DNA of 32,000 nucleotides from Crocosphaera subtropica ATCC 51142 (GCF_000017845.1 NC_010546.1:1080001-1112000), one strand, 5' to 3'; counted from the first letter of the stretch, positions 4,986 to 17,500 are shown. Numbers and translations are program-made. Notes: a model not told the origin generated them from the letters alone.

Positions 4986-6764
4986 CTACTGGCTATAGTG
5001 ACGATTTAAAATTTTTTCTATTATTTCAAAAACTTCTTTAAATGCAGTAAAATCAAAATCATTAAACCCTTCTTCTTTATCATAGATATAGGTTGCAAAG
5101 TCATCTTTTGGCAATGCTACATTATTATTATCAGAATCAAAAACTTTACCATCTATGATTTTGAGTTGATTAGATTTGAATTTATTGTCAGTAGTAGTTA
5201 ATTGAGGTTTAGATAAATGTCTACCACTCTCTCGGTGAAATTCGTTGCTTAGAAAAAGTCTTTTATTTTTCTTGTCTGTGCGTTTAATTTCTGAATCTTG
5301 ATAATAATGTTCGATACAAATTTCTTTAACATCTTGACGATGTTTAGGGATAGGTAAAGCAAAAGAATAAACACCATTATCCCAATCTTTGAAACCTTGA
5401 GAATCATCATGAATTTTTTTTATTATATTAGGTTCATCTCGATCAAAAATAGCAATCAGAGGAATATTTCGCTTCTCCTTACAAAACTGTTTGCATACGT
5501 CAAAAAGTTGACTACTACCTTGCTTATCAGGCTCTAAATCGTCTTTATAGTCTAAGTCAAAATAATCAACTATCTTTTTATTGATTAACCATTTCCAAGC
5601 AACTTTTAAATGTTTAATATCTGTTTTTCCTTCAGTCCAAATAATAGCTTTATGTAAGTTATTTGATGACTTGATCTCTGAAAGTTTACTGGTAATAAAA
5701 TTAATTTTTGAATCATCCGCTAAATCAGGGACAAGAACTTTTAATTGTTTTAAGAACTTCAAATAAATATGATCAGTGTCTCCTCGAACTAAGCCAATAA
5801 AATTTATTTTTCCTTGAACCATTTTTCTAAAGCAATCTCGACTTTTCATATTATTATTGTTTTCATTAAATCCCTTATAAAATTCAGCTTCTGCATTTTC
5901 TAAACCATATTTTTTCCAAGCATGAAGAATAGCACGAACCTGTCGGATATACTTACGCTTAACATTAAGTTTCTCATTAACAATAATTCCAGTCACTTCT
6001 TGCCGTTGATATCTATTTTGTAATCTTAGTTTTGATAAATTAACTGAAAATCCATTATCTTTAATAACTGTTATCAATTCGTCTGCAAGAACAAAGGTTT
6101 CAGAATCTTGAGAAAAATAGGCAAGACGATGAGGAAATTTGAATCGAGAAGTTGAAAAGGTAATATCGTCTGCATATCTAGTATAAATACACCGATATTT
6201 CTTTGCCAATTTTTGAAGCTGAGAATCTAATCTGGCGCAAATCATATTTGATATAATTGGTGAGGTGGGTGCGCCTTGTGGTAATTGATTATTATAACAA
6301 CAAATTTGTGCTAATATAGTAGCAACTTCTTGAGTACAATTATAAGGTTTTGCGATAAAAAGTCCTCGAACTCTTCCAAAGTTAATAGATGGAAAAAAAT
6401 CTTGATCTTCAAGATTTAAAATGTATCGTTGTTTGAGATGTATTTTGGCATTAGTAACAATACTTTTTTGAATAGCAAAACCATGTACTGATGGTTTTAC
6501 TTGATATACGCTACTCAAAACTTGATTAAGTTTGTGTTGAATTATTTTTAAAGATGTTTGAGGAGTAGTAATTAATCTGTGTCCACCCGACTTTTTAGGG
6601 ATTTTAAAAGTAGTATATGCTTTATCTCTAGGGTGAATATACAAATGATAGCGTAATTGATAGTCACTAACTTGGAGTAATCTAGCAACATCCTGGCGTG
6701 TTTTTAATTGCTCAAAGTGTTTTTTTAATTCTTCTTGTGGTAAATCTAAAGAAGTTGTCCCCAT
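4986..6764 (-). CDS. Retron-type reverse transcriptase fused to a C-terminal TOPRIM-like domain
   Basis: RT motifs: KKSGGHRLITTP, SIVTNAKIH (retron NAxxH), FFPSI, QGAPTSPIISN, YTRYADDITFS, and RQEVTGIIVN (retron VTG). The C-terminal ~290 aa carry IIWTEGKTDIKH (TOPRIM Glu) and IAIFDRDEP (DxD). I place the start at ATG 6764 (MGTTSLDLPQ...). The ORF-track TTG at 6824 would overlap the a2 repeat of the ncRNA. Confidence 0.8.
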   Translation of the reverse strand: MGTTSLDLPQEELKKHFEQLKTRQDVARLLQVSDYQLRYHLYIHPRDKAYTTFKIPKKSGGHRLITTPQTSLKIIQHKLNQVLSSVYQVKPSVHGFAIQKSIVTNAKIHLKQRYILNLEDQDFFPSINFGRVRGLFIAKPYNCTQEVATILAQICCYNNQLPQGAPTSPIISNMICARLDSQLQKLAKKYRCIYTRYADDITFSTSRFKFPHRLAYFSQDSETFVLADELITVIKDNGFSVNLSKLRLQNRYQRQEVTGIIVNEKLNVKRKYIRQVRAILHAWKKYGLENAEAEFYKGFNENNNNMKSRDCFRKMVQGKINFIGLVRGDTDHIYLKFLKQLKVLVPDLADDSKINFITSKLSEIKSSNNLHKAIIWTEGKTDIKHLKVAWKWLINKKIVDYFDLDYKDDLEPDKQGSSQLFDVCKQFCKEKRNIPLIAIFDRDEPNIIKKIHDDSQGFKDWDNGVYSFALPIPKHRQDVKEICIEHYYQDSEIKRTDKKNKRLFLSNEFHRESGRHLSKPQLTTTDNKFKSNQLKIIDGKVFDSDNNNVALPKDDFATYIYDKEEGFNDFDFTAFKEVFEIIEKILNRHYSQ

Positions 6765-10989: not shown

Positions 10990-11197
10990 ATTGATCTCCT
11001 AAACTTTAACAAAAATATATTTTTTCTAATGCTAGACACTAATAGCTTAACAAACTATCAATAATAGTTTATCTGTCTAACGAAATAGTAATTATTGATG
11101 CTCCGTTGCTCATCTTTTTTCTCTGTCTTGAGAAGGATGATTTCTTATATATTTTTTTTATGATTAAAGAAGTCGTAATGGTTATTGAAGTACCAAG

Positions 11198-11374
11198 ATG
11201 CAAATTTTAAAATTAATTCTATCCATTCTTGTTCCTCCCCTTGGTGTATTTCTCATGGTGGGAGTCAATGTTACTCTTTTGATCAATATTTTGTTAACTC
11301 TTTTGGGTTGGCTTCCAGGAGCAATTCATGCTGTTTGGATCTACTCTAAACAGACAGAACAAGTCAATCCTTAA
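11198..11374 (+). CDS. Pmp3/YqaE (UPF0057) family small membrane proteolipid, 58 aa (missed by the ORF track)
   Basis: My translation is MQILKLILSILVPPLGVFLMVGVNVTLLINILLTLLGWLPGAIHAVWIYSKQTEQVNP. LPPLGV...LL..LGW.PG..HA is the family signature. Confidence 0.75.
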   Translation: MQILKLILSILVPPLGVFLMVGVNVTLLINILLTLLGWLPGAIHAVWIYSKQTEQVNP

Positions 11375-11410
11375 TCACTCCGTTCGAGGGGTATGGCACA
11401 AAAGTTAGAC

Positions 11411-11483
11411 TAGATCCGCTTTAGACATTAGACAATCATCTTGAGAAGGCAGAGGGAGCAGAAGAGGCAAGGGGAGAAAAAAG
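11411..11483 (+). repeat. Copy B of a second repeat module (gatccgctttaga + purine-rich tract)
   Basis: The 13-mer gatccgctttaga (11413..11425) is identical to the reverse complement of 28194..28206. It is followed by a purine-rich run (gagaaggcagagggagcagaagaggcaaggggagaaaaaag), as in the 28138..28174 copy. Confidence 0.6.
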
Positions 11484-11610
11484 ATTACTCTACGATGATA
11501 AGCGGATTTGGTATTAGTAGGGGCTTAATAATATTAAGCCTCTCTTTATTGTTTTTATACTACAAAAATACCACAAAATACAATTTTTGTGTTACGATAC
11601 TACAAGACAA

Positions 11611-11717
11611 GGCGGGAAGTTCCTTGTTTACCCTTTGCCTAATCAGGCCGAAAAATGAGGATTATCGTTGGATACAATGCTGAAAAGTGTTAAGGTGTTC
11701 AAATTCCCCTCCCGCCG
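11611..11717 (+). ncRNA. Y RNA-like unit 1: acceptor stem + Ro60-binding-type hairpin, no D arm, degenerate T arm
   Basis: 7-bp terminal stem GGCGGGA/TCCCGCC. The conserved hairpin is TTCC-TTGT-TTAC-CC-TTT-GCC-taatca-GGC-CG-AAA-A-ATGA-GGA-TTATCG. The T-arm-like GGTG-ttcaaatt-CCCC is imperfect. Confidence 0.55.
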
Positions 11718-11757
11718 TCTTTTAAAATCCGTAATCATAAAAATTAACACAAGTCCC

Positions 11758-11788
11758 TTGACATTATTTTGTAGTATGTATTATAAAA
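11758..11788 (+). promoter_or_regulatory. Candidate sigma70-type promoter for Y RNA-like units 2-3 (and possibly rsr)
   Basis: TTGACA at 11758..11763 and TATAAA at 11783..11788 (19-nt spacer; alternative -10 hexamers overlap). This would give a leader of roughly a dozen nt before unit 2 at 11808. Confidence 0.4.
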
Positions 11789-11807
11789 GTAATATGCAAT
11801 TGATTAT

Positions 11808-11935
11808 GACGGAGTAGCTCAGTTGGTAGAGCAACTTAACATCCTTATTCACCCCTTGCCTTTTAGGCCGAAGAATGAGGGTTATCGACCTAAAAGCGAA
11901 GTCTGACACGGGTTCGAGTCCCGTCTCCGTCACCA
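11808..11935 (+). ncRNA. Y RNA-like unit 2: complete tRNA frame with Ro60-binding-type hairpin replacing the anticodon arm, encoded 3' ACCA
   Basis: Acceptor GACGGAG/CTCCGTC, U8, and D arm GCTC-AGTTGGTA-GAGC. T arm ACGGG-TTCGAGT-CCCGT, then discriminator A plus CCA (11932..11935). The central hairpin is ATCC-TTAT-TCAC-CC-CTT-GCC-tttta-GGC-CG-AAG-A-ATGA-GGG-TTATCG. Confidence 0.75.
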
Positions 11936-11938
11936 CTT

Positions 11939-12059
11939 GGCGAAGTAGTTTAAACGGATAGAACATTATATCCTTGTTCATCCCTTGCCCTTTGGGCCGA
12001 AGAATGAGGGTTATCGACTACCTACTCGAAAGGTGTGGGTTCGACTCCCACCTTCGCCG
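11939..12059 (+). ncRNA. Y RNA-like unit 3: complete tRNA frame (with hairpin-forming long variable region) and Ro60-binding-type hairpin replacing the anticodon arm
   Basis: Acceptor GGCGAAG/CTTCGCC, U8, and D arm GTTT-AAACGGATA-GAAC. T arm GTGGG-TTCGACT-CCCAC with discriminator G. There is a possible extra arm ACCT-actcgaa-AGGT (12020..12034). The central hairpin is ATCC-TTGT-TCAT-CC-CTT-GCCC-ttt-GGGC-CG-AAG-A-ATGA-GGG-TTATCG. Confidence 0.75.
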
Positions 12060-12082
12060 TGTCTTTTTTTGCCTATGTAGGC
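12060..12082 (+). terminator. U-run (T7, 12064..12070) plus small hairpin GCCTA-tg-TAGGC after unit 3; possible partial terminator/processing signal before rsr
   Basis: Seven consecutive T directly follow the stable acceptor/T-arm helices. The Shine-Dalgarno GAGGAG (12084..12089) and the rsr ATG at 12096 follow. Confidence 0.3.
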
Positions 12083-12095
12083 CGAGGAGATAACT

Positions 12096-13700
12096 ATGAA
12101 TTATCAATTTTTTACCCATAAACAGAAAGGAACGCCCCAAACTCAGCCTATTTCTAAGCGTGAAGCAGAAATGATTCAAGGCCGTTCTGGCGGTTGGATG
12201 TTTGATGCAGGGTTGTGGAAACTATTACGGCGTTGTCTCCTCGTGGGTACGGCACAAAGTACCTATTATGCTGGAAAACGGGAACTAACGGACGACTTTA
12301 TTGATGTTCTCAAAGAAGGGGTAAAAAGCGATCCCAGTCGGGTTGCTTCGGAAATACTTTATGCTAGTGATGGCCGAGCGATCAATAATAGTGCACCGTT
12401 GTTAGGATTAGTTTTACTGTCTATGGGTAAGACTGCTGAAGCAAAACAGGCATTTCGGGAGATTTTCCCTCAAGTTGTCCGCACCGGTAGCCATTTTTAT
12501 GAATGGTTAAGTTATAGCAAATCGTTGCGAGGCTTTGGTCAAATCATTCAAGAAGTGGGGACACAATGGTTATCACGGGAGGATGTGAAGGGGTTAGCTT
12601 ATCAACTGTTGAAATATCAACAACGGTATGGTTTTTCTAACCGAGATGTCTTGCGTTTATTCCATGTTAAACCCCCTACTGATGACCATCAACAGCTATT
12701 TAACTGGGTGATAAAAGGATGGGATGAGTTACCGAATGACATACCTTCAGAAGCGTTAACGCAGGTATGGTGGTATGAATGGTTAAAACATCATCCTGAC
12801 CAAACCCATCAGGCGATCGCAAAAGGGCGTTTAACCCACGAAATGGCTGCCCCTGTGGGAAAAATGGATAAAAAAGCCTGGCAACTACTGTTTAACGAGA
12901 TGCCTATCGGTGCGATGTTGCGTAACTTGGGATCGTTGACGGAGTTAGGGGTATTACGAACCGATGAACCGAAAAATTTAGATCGGGTTGAAAAGATTCT
13001 TAATGATGTTAACCGTCTCAGAAAAGGGCGCATTCATCCCATTGATGTCCTCAAAGCCCTAAAAACCTATCAGTCTGGGGGAAAACTGGGAAAAAGTAAG
13101 AAAAACTGGAAACCGGTTCCTCGTATTGTGGAAATATTGGACAAAGCGGTAGAATTATCCTTTGATACAGCCCAACCCACAGGGAAGGTGTTTCTTCATG
13201 CGGTGGATATTTCGGGGTCAATGTCTTGGGGTGTGGTGGACTCTGTGGGGTTAAGTTGTTGTGAAATTGCAACAGCAATGGCGTTAGTCACAGCAAAAGC
13301 GGAGAAAAACTACGTAATTCGGGGATTTTCTACTAAATTTATTGATTTAGGAATTTCTCGGAAAGATAGTTTTCAGTCTGCGCTGAAAAAAACTAGCGAT
13401 CGCAACTTCGGAGGAACAGATGCTTCTGTGGCCTATGATTGGGCGATTAAAAACAAGTTTAAAGCAGATGTGATCTGTTTTTGGACCGATAGCGAAAGTT
13501 GGGCAGGATATAGCCATCCTTGTGAAGCTTTAGCACAATATCGTAAAAAAGTCAACCCCAAAGTAAAGGCGGTTTATGTTACGTTGGCACCTTATCGTAT
13601 CAGTTTAGTTGACCCGAAAGATCCCTTATCTTGGGACTTGGGAGGGTTTGATCCAGGGACACCTCGTTTAATTTCAATGTTAGCACAAGACCAACTTTAA
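12096..13700 (+). CDS. rsr: Ro60-related protein (Rsr): TROVE domain + C-terminal vWA domain
   Basis: 534 aa. The N-terminal TROVE-like region (RCLLVGTAQSTYYAG..., HPIDVLKALKTY) is followed by a vWA domain with MIDAS DISGSMS. A strong SD, GAGGAG, lies 6 nt upstream of the ATG. Confidence 0.85.
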   Translation: MNYQFFTHKQKGTPQTQPISKREAEMIQGRSGGWMFDAGLWKLLRRCLLVGTAQSTYYAGKRELTDDFIDVLKEGVKSDPSRVASEILYASDGRAINNSAPLLGLVLLSMGKTAEAKQAFREIFPQVVRTGSHFYEWLSYSKSLRGFGQIIQEVGTQWLSREDVKGLAYQLLKYQQRYGFSNRDVLRLFHVKPPTDDHQQLFNWVIKGWDELPNDIPSEALTQVWWYEWLKHHPDQTHQAIAKGRLTHEMAAPVGKMDKKAWQLLFNEMPIGAMLRNLGSLTELGVLRTDEPKNLDRVEKILNDVNRLRKGRIHPIDVLKALKTYQSGGKLGKSKKNWKPVPRIVEILDKAVELSFDTAQPTGKVFLHAVDISGSMSWGVVDSVGLSCCEIATAMALVTAKAEKNYVIRGFSTKFIDLGISRKDSFQSALKKTSDRNFGGTDASVAYDWAIKNKFKADVICFWTDSESWAGYSHPCEALAQYRKKVNPKVKAVYVTLAPYRISLVDPKDPLSWDLGGFDPGTPRLISMLAQDQL

Positions 13701-15509: not shown

Positions 15510-15671
15510 GTTCTACCGAACCTGTCATGTAAAACTATTAGAAATAACATCTTGAAAGCTTGATTGGGCAAATATTTTAGTTTTTAACAGTTTGCTTTTG
15601 ACTGAATTCCTTGCCAAGTCAGGCTTAGTTAGGGTTTGAGCGATTTTTACCACACTAAGTTCAGTAGAACC
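15510..15671. mobile_element. 162-bp MITE inserted in the RM gene, flanked by 9-bp target-site duplication GAAATTGAG
   Basis: Terminal inverted repeats are GTTCTACCGAACCT (left) and AAGTTCAGTAGAAC (right), matching at 12 of 14 positions. Direct repeats gaaattgag lie at 15501..15509 and 15672..15680. Removing element plus one TSD (171 bp) restores ...LDEEIEKKLSKGYPNDNILFED... in frame. Confidence 0.85.
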
Positions 15672-17500
15672 GAAATTGAGAAGAAATTAAGCAAAGGATA
15701 CCCTAACGATAACATTTTATTTGAAGATTCTCAAACCGCCGTTTTAATACAAGGAGGAGAAGAAAGATTACGGGTTTCCATGAAGGATAGTGAGGGGTTA
15801 GATGGGTTAATTAATCAGTTTATTAATTATGTTCGTCCAGAGGTTAAAGACTTTCGAGAAGCAATAGAAAGTTTTAAGGAAGATTTACCGACTATTTTAG
15901 ATTCTTTACGGGAAATTATCGCTAAACAGTCTCAAGAAAATAAGAAGTTTATTGCAGCAAGGGATAAGTTTTTAACCATTTGTCAAGAGTCTATTAATCC
16001 TGAGATTGCTGTTGAAGATGTGAGAGAAATGATCATCCAGCATATTTTAACTGAAGACATATTTCTGACTATTTTTAATGAGTCTCAATTTCATCGAGAG
16101 AATAATATTGCTAGGGAGTTACAAGGGGTTATTAATACGTTTTTTACGGGGAGTGTAAGACGAAATACATTAAGTAGTATTGAACGGTATTATGGGGTAA
16201 TTCGTCGAACTGCTGCGAGTATTTATAATCATCATGAAAAACAGAAGTTTTTGAAAGCAATTTATGAGAATTTTTATAAAGCATATAATCCGAAAGCAGC
16301 AGATAGATTAGGAATTGTTTATACTCCTAATGAAATTGTTCGCTTTATGATCGAAAGTGTGGATTATTTGGTACATAAACATTTTGGTAAGTTATTGTGT
16401 GATTCTGGGGTAGAAATTTTAGATCCAGCAACGGGTACGGGGACGTTTGTGACGGAATTAATTGAATATTTACCGAAGGATAAATTAAAGTATAAATATC
16501 AGAATGAGATTCATTGTAATGAGGTGCAAATCTTACCTTATTATATTGCGAATTTGAATATTGAATATACTTATCAGCAGAAAATGAATGAGTATGAGGA
16601 GTTTAATAATATTTGTTTTGTGGATACATTAGATCATACTTCCTTTACGGGTAAACAGTTAGATTTGTTTGCATTGACCATTGAGAATACAGAAAGAATT
16701 AAAAATCAAAATGATCGTCAAATTTCTGTGATTATTGGGAATCCTCCTTATAATGCAAAACAAGAAAACTTTAATCAAAATAATGCTAACCGTTTTTATG
16801 AGGGGATAGATAAAAGAATAAAAGAAACTTACATTAAACAGGGAACTGCACAAAATCAGATTGTAATTTATGATATGTACACCCGTTTTATTCGTTGGGC
16901 CTCTGATAGATTAAGTAAAAATGGTATTATTGCTTTTGTTTCTAATAATTCTTTTATTGATGCTTTAGCTTATGATGGGTTTAGAAAAATTATTTCACAA
17001 GAATTTAATGAAATATGGATTATTAATACTAAAGGAAATGCAAGAACAAGTGGAGAAAGAAGAAGGAAAGAAGCAGGTAATATATTTAGTGATCAGATTA
17101 GGGTAGGTATTGCTGTTTATTTCTTGGTTAGAAATGAAAATGCTGAAGGATTTAAAGTTTTTTATAATGCTATTGAAGATTACAAAAAAGCTGAAGATAA
17201 AAAAGAATATTTAAGAATCCATAAAATAAATACTTTAAATTTTCCTCATATTAAACCTGATAAACGTCATAATTGGTTAAATCAATCAGATAATAATTTT
17301 GATGAGTTATTACCTTTGATGGATAAAGAGGTTAAAAGAGGAAAATCTCAAGAAGCTGTGTTTAAATTGTTTTCTAGAGGAGTAGCAACACAAAGGGACG
17401 AATGGGTTTATGATTTTTCAAGAGAAACATTAGACATCTCCATAATTTAATAAAATCAAGAAATATAGTATAATAAAATGAATAATTAGTTCAAAAAAGA

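Follow-up and report, generated by a model that had tools for sequence, protein, structure and literature searches.

Directly upstream of rsr, the gene for the Ro60 orthologue Rsr, the genome of Crocosphaera subtropica ATCC 51142 carries three RNA units in which a transfer RNA (tRNA) frame is combined with a hairpin of the type bound by Ro60. The units came to light in a stretch of 32,000 nucleotides (NC_010546.1:1080001-1112000; hereafter the window, to which positions refer unless another locus is named), where they, rsr and its leader all lie on the + strand between 11610 and 13700. The explanation that we favor, with a probability of about 0.8, is that the units are Y RNAs, partners of Rsr/Ro60, built in native tRNA order, with a loop-capped helix of the Ro60-binding type taking the place of the anticodon arm. 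The features concerned are as follows.

11610-11718 (+): unit 1, a variant; 7-bp closing (acceptor-like) stem GGCGGGA 11611-11617 / TCCCGCC 11710-11716
11621-11667 (+): Ro-type hairpin of unit 1, part of a variant that lacks the D arm and has a degenerate T-like arm
11758-11763 and 11779-11784 (+): putative promoter ahead of unit 2, TTGACA and TATTAT with a 15-nt spacer, read by eye
11808-11932 (+): unit 2, a complete tRNA-order Y-like RNA with discriminator A11932, followed by an encoded CCA at 11933-11935
11808-11814 and 11925-11931 (+): acceptor stem of unit 2, GACGGAG/CTCCGTC, 7/7 Watson-Crick pairs
11817-11832 (+): D arm of unit 2, GCTC AGTTGGTA GAGC, with A14 and G18G19 (Rfam tRNA alignment)
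11842-11887 (+): Ro-type hairpin of unit 2, at the site of the anticodon arm; lower stem UCCUUAUUC/GAAUGAGGG, internal loop with CGAA, apical stem GCCU/AGGC, UUU loop and conserved 3' tail UUAUCG
11867-11873 (+): GCCGAAG, the bacterial Y RNA motif GNCGAAG of Chen et al. (2014) in unit 2
11908-11924 (+): T arm of unit 2, ACGGG TTCGAGT CCCGT (Rfam tRNA alignment)
11939-12059 (+): unit 3, a complete tRNA-order Y-like RNA; acceptor stem GGCGAAG/CTTCGCC, hairpin 11971-12016, T arm 12035-12051, discriminator G12059, CCA not encoded
11807/11932 and 11938/12059 (+): nucleotides at tRNA positions -1 and 73 (N-1 and N73) of units 2 and 3
12060-12095 (+): rsr leader, with a U-run at 12064-12070, a hairpin GCCU 12071-12074 / AGGC 12079-12082, CG at 12083-12084 and a Shine-Dalgarno sequence, AGGAG 12085-12089, which the hairpin abuts
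12096-13700 (+): rsr, the Ro60 orthologue, 534 amino acids, with TROVE and vWA domains and a MIDAS-type DISGSMS

Units 2 and 3 exceed the gathering score of the Rfam tRNA model (RF00005; 29 bits) with their acceptor, D and T arms, reaching 49.9 and 45.0 bits, respectively. The model is matched throughout in both, the anticodon arm excepted, where the alignments open insertions of 63 and 61 nt: in place of the 5-bp stem and 7-nt loop of an anticodon arm stands a conserved hairpin of 61-63 nt. Unit 2 also has U8A9 between the 5' strand of its acceptor stem and the D arm, and its gene sequence spells out the 3' end of a tRNA, discriminator and CCA. Two acceptor pairs differ between the units (A2:U71 is replaced by G:C and G5:C68 by A:U), and both differences are compensated within the unit. 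The full tRNA frame that the initial annotation ascribed to units 2 and 3 is thus borne out, by these scores and by the covariation of acceptor, D, T and anticodon-like stems documented below. ARAGORN called no tRNA in the window, units 2 and 3 included.

Unit 1 shares the plan in part. The covariance model of the family (R2, below) aligns it over its full length at 40.4-40.6 bits with 16 D-arm positions deleted, and its 7-bp stem is closed in the minimum-free-energy fold (z = -3.4). The idea that all three units follow one plan therefore holds for units 2 and 3 and, in unit 1, for the acceptor stem and the hairpin; the D arm is absent and the T arm degenerate. The variant is not peculiar to the window: a form of about 107 nt without a D arm, consisting of acceptor stem, Ro-type hairpin and T-like arm, is the first unit in Crocosphaera-type loci (L001 3527-3633, L003 695-801, L004 3381-3488, L005 1835-1941, L006 3513-3620 and L007 3232-3339). 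It may be an analogue of the YrlB-type Y RNAs.

To place the units among their relatives, 80 cyanobacterial rsr loci were fetched by way of the Rsr protein and combined with the window, giving 81 sources. A first covariance model, made from unit 2 alone with a hand-drawn structure, returned 218 matches; a model rebuilt from the 150 best (R2) returned 286 at E <= 1e-3 and scores units 2 and 3 at 133.9 and 107.1 bits. R2 identifies 281 full-length units in 77 of the 81 sources, every one on the strand of rsr, 262 upstream of the gene and 19 just downstream. Their median length is 125 nt and a locus holds between one and 11 of them, ten loci having a single unit. On the minus strand the model matched two genuine tRNAs only, and no unit was found away from the immediate neighborhood of rsr in the 32-kb window and the approximately 700 kb of flanking sequence searched.

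The initial annotation had looked to covariation of both the tRNA frame and the hairpin upstream of other cyanobacterial rsr genes, and this is what the alignment displays. Among the 150 best units, standard pairs occupy 94-96% of pair cells compared with 77-78% after shuffling, and none of 500 shuffles gave so high a value; when the 3' partners are slid by one to three columns pairing falls to 39-60%. Covariation is seen at each of the seven acceptor pairs (98.9% paired, up to six pair types in 149 distinct units), in the D stem (96% paired) and in the T stem (99.1%), and the anticodon-like stem is 92-95% paired. Because the alignment of 150 units was fitted to the drawn structure, RNAalifold was also run on a plain MAFFT alignment of 30 diverse cyanobacterial and viral units (the latter are described below). 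The unfitted alignment recovered the acceptor, D, hairpin and T helices, with compensatory changes at 23 of the 28 pairs in the fold. The family consensus keeps the nucleotides of the tRNA elbow (U8, A14, G18G19, a TTC of the T54-Psi55-C56 type, A58 and the pair G53:C61), and the variable region measures exactly 5 nt in 131 of the 150 best units.

Several further observations concern the arrays themselves. Nostocales and certain other groups have one or two extra units just past the rsr stop codon on the same strand, at about 5590-6070 of their loci; units downstream of rsr occur in L010, L013, L017, L028, L030, L033, L037, L049, L053, L055, L057, L059, L060, L064, L067 and L077. Run on 60 of the 80 related loci, ARAGORN reported no tRNA save three unrelated or atypical genes. 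Inside two arrays there are tRNA-like genes of tRNA size (about 71-73 nt; L017 3348-3418 and L153 4291-4363), that of L017 being called by ARAGORN as a tRNA-Ile with the unusual anticodon AAU; such genes may be units without the hairpin or RNAs like the 'b7a-tRNA' discussed below. In the filamentous cyanobacteria L013, L030 and L048 the spacers between units are packed with short tandem repeats of heptamer type (such as AATTTTG, CCAAAAT, CATAACT). As to promoters, a strict consensus scan found none and left the hexamers ahead of unit 2 uncalled. Plainer promoter-like pairs, TTGAC(A/C)...TACAAT, precede units in the Prochloron-type loci L022 and L024, and a position-specific search for promoter signals upstream of units across loci found only weak A/T richness and a conserved UG at -2/-1.

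The hairpin is the part of the family most conserved in sequence, with the consensus UCCUUnUUCA..CCUUGCC-loop-GGCCGAAGAAUGAGGGUUAUCG, in which GNCGAAG is followed by GGGUUAUCG. Drawn as nine continuous pairs (UCCUURUUC/GAAUGAGGG) the lower stem is 93.2% paired, with some covariation; the apical stem is 93.6% paired, and CGAA comes to lie in an internal loop beneath an apical stem of 3-4 bp. The initial annotation had correctly put a hairpin in place of the anticodon arm. Its finer pairing scheme (UCC/GGG, UCAU/AUGA and CUU/AAG) is 78-90% paired and was abandoned for the 9-bp lower stem, which both RNAalifold and pair counts prefer. Over the 150 best units CGAAG is 83-97% conserved per position.

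Bacterial Y RNAs are recognized by the motif GNCGAAN0-1G (Chen et al. 2014, PMC4201824), which units 2 and 3 carry as GCCGAAG, and a CGAA bulge is still given as the hallmark of Y-like RNAs in a 2025 paper. The GGUUAYC that follows the motif is common to the canonical YrlAs of Gordonia phage Cashline and to the Rfam consensus of the sbRNAs, the nematode homologues of Y RNAs. That consensus ('..GGUCCGGaGucgaUGGGUUAUCa'), which aligned to the Cashline RNA, has the same spacing, CCG.AG...GGGUUAUC, as the hairpin of the units, for which the initial annotation had proposed a likeness to human Y1 RNA. Motif, conservation and genomic linkage together suggest that Rsr would bind the units through this hairpin.

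The linked gene is a Ro60 gene by several measures. Its product matches Pfam vWA_Ro60 (2.8e-38) and TROVE (2.3e-14); in the PDB the best match is Rsr of Deinococcus radiodurans (2NVO, 3e-69), with Ro60 1YVP at 8.6e-69 (Xenopus/human Ro60 structures), and the nearest homologues are Crocosphaera TROVE proteins with 88-91% identity. Together with the DISGSMS sequence these matches uphold the assignment, made at the outset, of a Ro60/Rsr orthologue beginning 36 nt after unit 3. The distance is itself a family trait: in most related loci the orthologous unit proximal to rsr ends 32-40 nt short of the ATG.

Within this short leader there is a second conserved element, composed of a U-run, a 4-bp hairpin, YG and GAG(G), which is present in 68 of 73 distinct cyanobacterial rsr leaders. 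Its stem shows compensatory changes (GCCC/GGGC, GCCU/AGGC, UCCC/GGGA, GUCU/AGAC) and the hairpin resembles the apex of the unit hairpin (CUU-GCCY-loop-RGGC-CG-AAG), to positions 42-71 of which the leader aligns weakly (7.2 bits, E 0.18). The leader of some species contains GNCGAAG itself (L033), and that of L078 carries GACGAAAA. The leader hairpin may be an autoregulatory site for Rsr or a stabilizer of the mRNA 5' end.

A tandem array presents the same linear order whether its members are built like tRNAs or like YrlA, the bacterial Y RNA of Rfam family RF02553 (Chen et al. 2014, PMC4201824; Wang et al. 2018, 10.1101/312249), and it is loop closure and strand pairing that decide between the two. 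YrlA has its termini in the Ro helix, a loop at the end of the acceptor-like stem and its T arm ahead of the D arm; the initial annotation had described it with termini at the Ro helix and a loop-closed acceptor stem, in agreement with both papers. In the units, by contrast, the Ro helix is closed by the loop, the D arm lies 5' of the T arm, and the termini are at an acceptor stem of 7-8 bp, often with an encoded CCA. In 144 of 150 units the Ro-type helix is capped by a few nucleotides, 5-7 nt if one counts from the last pair in the model. The two strands of the acceptor stem form on average 6.79 of 7 pairs within a unit (180 of 204 are perfect), compared with 5.0 when they are taken from adjacent units, as canonical YrlA would require, and 4.3 for random pairs of units. 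The first element of an array is an acceptor 5' strand, followed by a D arm, and the last is an acceptor 3' strand, preceded by a T arm. Units are separated by spacers of 65 nt at the median and more than 2 kb at the extreme, some of them containing promoter-like hexamers. The connectivity is thus the reverse of that of YrlA, as had been proposed.

Models based on the canonical order fail accordingly, which the initial annotation had anticipated. Searched with the Rfam models, as suggested there, the window lies above threshold for tRNA and below it for YrlA, and gives no match to Y_RNA. The best YrlA alignment reaches 29.8 bits against a threshold of 69 and straddles the junction of units 2 and 3 (11878-11994); 15 other cyanobacterial loci yielded no match at gathering level, the best sub-threshold alignment (40.5 bits, L015 2782-2902) again crossing a junction, with an 'acceptor loop' of 20 nt. 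At E <= 10 the Rfam matches in the window, tRNA apart, comprise only sub-threshold YrlA and noise (mir-4637, TD-1 and fragments of permuted tmRNA), and Rfam 15 has no family for these RNAs other than tRNA. On a Rhizobium plasmid, at an rtcR-rsr-rtcB locus, the same model detects a YrlA of canonical order with 92.2 bits. Nonomuraea and Gordonia phage Cashline have an acceptor-like stem that closes locally (CCGGAG-uuccgg-CUCCGG and CACCC-UUCG-GGGUG), and the tRNA-order model aligns to their RNAs only with broken acceptor pairs. The three controls indicate that the approach tells the two topologies apart. The units are an exact circular permutation of YrlA; they encode directly the un-permuted tRNA form, the arrays providing a dimeric context. 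'Circularly permuted', the term first applied to the units, is accordingly apt relative to YrlA; the RNAs themselves are in native tRNA order and it is YrlA that has been described as a permuted tRNA.

The acceptor end has properties of its own. Of the 281 units, 108 (38%, against about 1.6% expected by chance) spell out CCA in the register of a tRNA, 49 of these having 7 bp followed by N73 and CCA and 59 having 8 bp followed by one nucleotide and CCA. N-1, the nucleotide preceding the acceptor stem, has a possible partner in N73 in 78% of distinct units (208 of 267), where chance predicts 37.5%; the pairs are GC in 139, UA in 30 and UG in 27, and pairing between positions -2 and 74 is at chance level (39%). 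An extra -1:73 pair is otherwise a signature of tRNA-His. Encoded CCA and the -1:73 pair point to selection on the acceptor end itself, and they fit a predicted maturation in which RNase P and the enzymes that finish tRNA 3' ends take part. There is a precedent in the YrlA of Mycobacterium smegmatis, which RNase P cleaves and to which CCA is added in vivo (PMC4201824).

The family extends beyond the loci considered so far. In Picosynechococcus sp. PCC 7002 three units lie upstream of a TROVE gene on plasmid pAQ7 (NC_010474.1; L081 3542-3665, 3690-3796 and 3822-3944), where the PLSDB gene table, which is without RNA genes, lists no feature. On the plasmid they occupy the minus strand at about 163424-163301, 163276-163170 and 163144-163022, and the TROVE gene 162965-161364. 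A pattern scan of IMG/VR followed by the covariance model recovered 29 units that are full-length and score 60 bits or more. They come from about 20 uncultivated viral contigs, several of which have large, dense tRNA arrays and some of which exceed 300 kb. On at least 11 of these contigs (L153, L160, L102, L091, L151, L105, L123, L120, L126, L096 and L107) a Ro60 homologue 30-37% identical to Rsr of the window adjoins the units on the same strand, and L153 has a Ro60 that shares 44-47% identity with the Ro proteins of actinophages. In the viral units, an independent set, pairing is complete (100%) in the acceptor and T stems, and a single position shows as many as five pair types. Rfam YrlA had no gathering-level match in six viral and two isolated-phage loci. 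Among isolated phages, no clear unit in tRNA order was recognized in Microbacterium phage FuzzBuster or Gordonia phage Forza, the best match being weak at 27 bits, and blastn of a viral unit against GenBank phages found generic tRNA segments only.

Other explanations have to be set against these data. The arrays might consist of ordinary tandem YrlAs in canonical order, each spanning the junction of two units as we have drawn them. Such RNAs would account for sub-threshold alignments over junctions (29.8 bits in the window, 40.5 bits in L015), for the similar acceptors of neighbors, with inter-unit pairing of up to 6/7 in Crocosphaera, and for the 'longer acceptor stem' reported for cyanobacterial YrlAs (Chen et al. 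2014, PMC4201824). They would not account for differences between neighbors being compensated within the unit (the 6.79 of 7 pairs, against 5.0 and the random 4.3), for spacers that mostly run from 40 nt to several hundred and in places contain promoter-like sequences, for the tiny loop on the Ro helix in 144 of 150 units, or for the array ends and the ten loci with a single unit. In the window, moreover, unit 2 would leave its 5' half and unit 3 its 3' half as orphans, although each is perfectly complementary to its partner within the unit. We consider canonical YrlAs across junctions very improbable, and on acceptor pairing, spacer lengths, the loop-capped helix and array ends we rejected them. 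A score above the Rfam tRNA threshold would also be expected of tRNA genes or pseudogenes interrupted in the anticodon loop by an intron or insert, and group I introns do occur at that place in some cyanobacterial tRNAs. An insert of about 50-60 nt is far too short for a group I intron and is here the most conserved part of the RNA; its removal leaves no 5-bp anticodon stem with a 7-nt loop, and ARAGORN finds no tRNA. The units, in addition, are found only beside Ro60 genes, in arrays, in cyanobacteria and on viral contigs. Covariation excludes decaying pseudogenes, and we rejected the interrupted tRNA as scarcely credible. The chance of a tRNA-derived repeat or mobile element having accumulated fortuitously near rsr seems equally negligible: copy numbers of one to 11 per locus, the similarity of neighbors and the short tandem repeats in which Nostocales spacers are rich could be read in this way, but 281 of 281 units are on the rsr strand, none lies elsewhere in the window and the searched flanks, and every helix is preserved by compensatory changes.

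A different kind of alternative grants the structure and disputes its role: the units would act mainly in cis, as a structured leader of the rsr mRNA that serves, for instance, Rsr autoregulation, processing or stability, and would not be stable RNAs acting in trans. It draws on the strict linkage and orientation relative to rsr, the proximal unit 32-40 nt before the ATG in most loci, the miniature copy of the hairpin apex that abuts the Shine-Dalgarno sequence and, in M. smegmatis, the single precursor that contains both Y RNAs and rsr (PMC4201824). Against it stand the copy number, up to 11 per locus over more than 1.5 kb with some copies downstream of rsr, and the promoter-like sequences in some spacers. 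Selection also retains a complete, L-shape-compatible tRNA frame, a 5-nt variable region and an encoded CCA, for which a leader would have no use. We hold a mainly cis-acting leader to be improbable; cis and trans roles are in any case compatible.

Several points also weigh against Y RNAs in tRNA order. Two loci, L042 and L068, have upstream sequence yet no unit at E <= 1e-3. The aligned sequences are related, and the shuffle statistics consequently overstate their independence. Rfam Y_RNA finds nothing in the window even at E <= 10, so that there is no positive model match to a Y RNA, although such a miss is expected for a permuted arrangement. The strict GNCGAAN0-1G expression is matched by just 121 of the 281 units (86 of the 132 best), unit 1, which has GCCGAAAAAUG, not being among them, and the hairpin, being so conserved in sequence, covaries too little to fix the register of its internal pairs. 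Finally, every biochemical step, from transcription and processing to Rsr binding and the effector, is read from sequence.

Set beside known systems, the units represent a bacterial Y RNA with a tRNA-like module, functionally a known kind, in a layout that differs from those of YrlA, Yrn1 and the processed YrlA of M. smegmatis. With YrlA they share the position next to rsr, the Ro-binding strand GNCGAA(N)G followed by the T arm (YrlA aligns by its 5' half to the 3' half of a unit), D and T arms of tRNA type that keep the conserved nucleotides of tertiary interactions, and a Ro helix at the position of the anticodon stem. Processed M. smegmatis YrlA comes close, with a 7-bp acceptor stem cut by RNase P and CCA added (PMC4201824), which means that a Y RNA with a free tRNA-like acceptor end is already known; it is in two pieces with the Ro helix open as well, whereas a unit is predicted to be one continuous chain. 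Yrn1 of D. radiodurans is likewise a Y RNA with some tRNA-like features and an order of arms relative to the termini unlike that of YrlA (PMC4201824), but it has a terminal Ro helix at the acceptor position and an anticodon-like stem-loop, where the units have the Ro helix at the anticodon position and a genuine acceptor. The b7a-tRNA of Burroughs and Aravind (2016), a predicted tRNA-like noncoding RNA of RNA-repair loci that is said to lie occasionally beside Rsr, is portrayed in the summary of 10.1101/312249 as strongly resembling an authentic tRNA and linked to Band-7 and RtcB, with no Ro-binding hairpin mentioned there; this description sets it apart, and identity with the units is possible. 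Neither Band-7 nor RtcB was found among the open reading frames (ORFs) checked that adjoin rsr in the window. Metazoan Y RNAs (RF00019) and nematode sbRNAs (RF01656) have the Ro60-binding helix, with CCG(A/G)AG ... GGGUUAUC on one strand; they differ in having no tRNA frame and in termini that form the helix, and their Rfam models miss the window. A formal parallel is transfer-messenger RNA (tmRNA), a tRNA-like bacterial RNA that exists in two permuted gene orders, as a one-piece and as a circularly permuted two-piece form. It differs in its role in trans-translation and in having no Ro module, and Rfam lists its permuted form as a family.

Previous authors came near to this arrangement. Wang et al. 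noted that YrlA resembles a circularly permuted tRNA, cited an origin from dimeric tRNA transcripts and speculated that some YrlAs are processed so as to resemble tRNAs (10.1101/312249). Chen et al. [quoted passage not shown] The full-text literature searched, which took in neither the supplements of Chen et al. (2014) nor Burroughs and Aravind (2016) nor Sim and Wolin (2018), holds no description of a Y RNA in tRNA order. A prior mention is possible, and our confidence is high in the annotation and moderate in its novelty.

If the units are Y RNAs in tRNA order, then their life history might be as follows. Transcription would run along the rsr strand, in part from promoters of the units themselves and probably on into rsr, and the enzymes of tRNA maturation would release them: RNase P at the 5' end and, at the 3' end, RNase Z with the CCA-adding enzyme, or trimming as far as the CCA in the gene. 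The rsr mRNA would also receive its 5' end when the proximal unit is excised. The resulting RNAs of about 120 nt would bind Rsr by the hairpin, through the CGAA internal loop and GGGUUAUCG, and could offer the tRNA-like elbow and the CCA end to an effector, either PNPase, by analogy with RYPER, or a tRNA-binding enzyme; a tRNA-binding protein as partner has been proposed for YrlA (Wang et al., 10.1101/312249). Since the 3' half of a unit followed by the 5' half of the next has the order of YrlA, tandem arrays offer a simple route to YrlA.

These elements can be combined into a more ambitious proposal. The G-1:C73 pair is the main identity element for histidyl-tRNA synthetase, and the frequent N-1:N73 pairs of the units, mostly G-1:C73, copy that element. 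The combined proposal would have RNase P and RNase Z produce mature, CCA-ended Y RNAs of tRNA form, possibly charged; Rsr would be coupled by them to the tRNA-handling or translation machinery and not to PNPase only; the design would be ancestral, YrlA having arisen from it by permutation within arrays; and Rsr would autoregulate through the mini-hairpin of the leader over the Shine-Dalgarno sequence. As a whole we regard this as rather doubtful.

Three other features of the window were recorded.

11519-11543 (+): terminator-like hairpin whose tail is rich in T, some 70 nt ahead of unit 1, the sole one there in a consensus scan
11441-11683: ORF overlapping unit 1, without a Pfam match and taken as spurious
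15636-17450 (+): ORF of 604 amino acids with a type ISP restriction-modification coupler, an N6 methylase and the first approximately 26 residues of the C-terminal specificity domain

Ahead of the terminator-like hairpin there is no + strand ORF with a family match, and a stretch of 530 nt (10990-11520) is unannotated. The 604-amino-acid ORF looks like a truncated type ISP enzyme.

For the biology of Y RNAs, the finding addresses a gap in surveys: cyanobacterial RNAs are present, often in arrays of 3-11, in an order that the YrlA model cannot align, and annotation based on Rfam would call the units tRNAs. The published derivation of YrlA from tRNA or dimeric tRNA transcripts gains a concrete intermediate, two adjacent units already containing a segment in YrlA order. 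The occurrence of the same class beside Ro60 genes on uncultivated phage genomes with tRNA arrays means that it is not a cyanobacterial curiosity. With a one-piece Y RNA that has a genuine acceptor stem and an encoded CCA, processing by RNase P and RNase Z, CCA addition, possible aminoacylation and the effector become testable, and PCC 7002, with its three units on pAQ7, is a genetically tractable host in which to do so.

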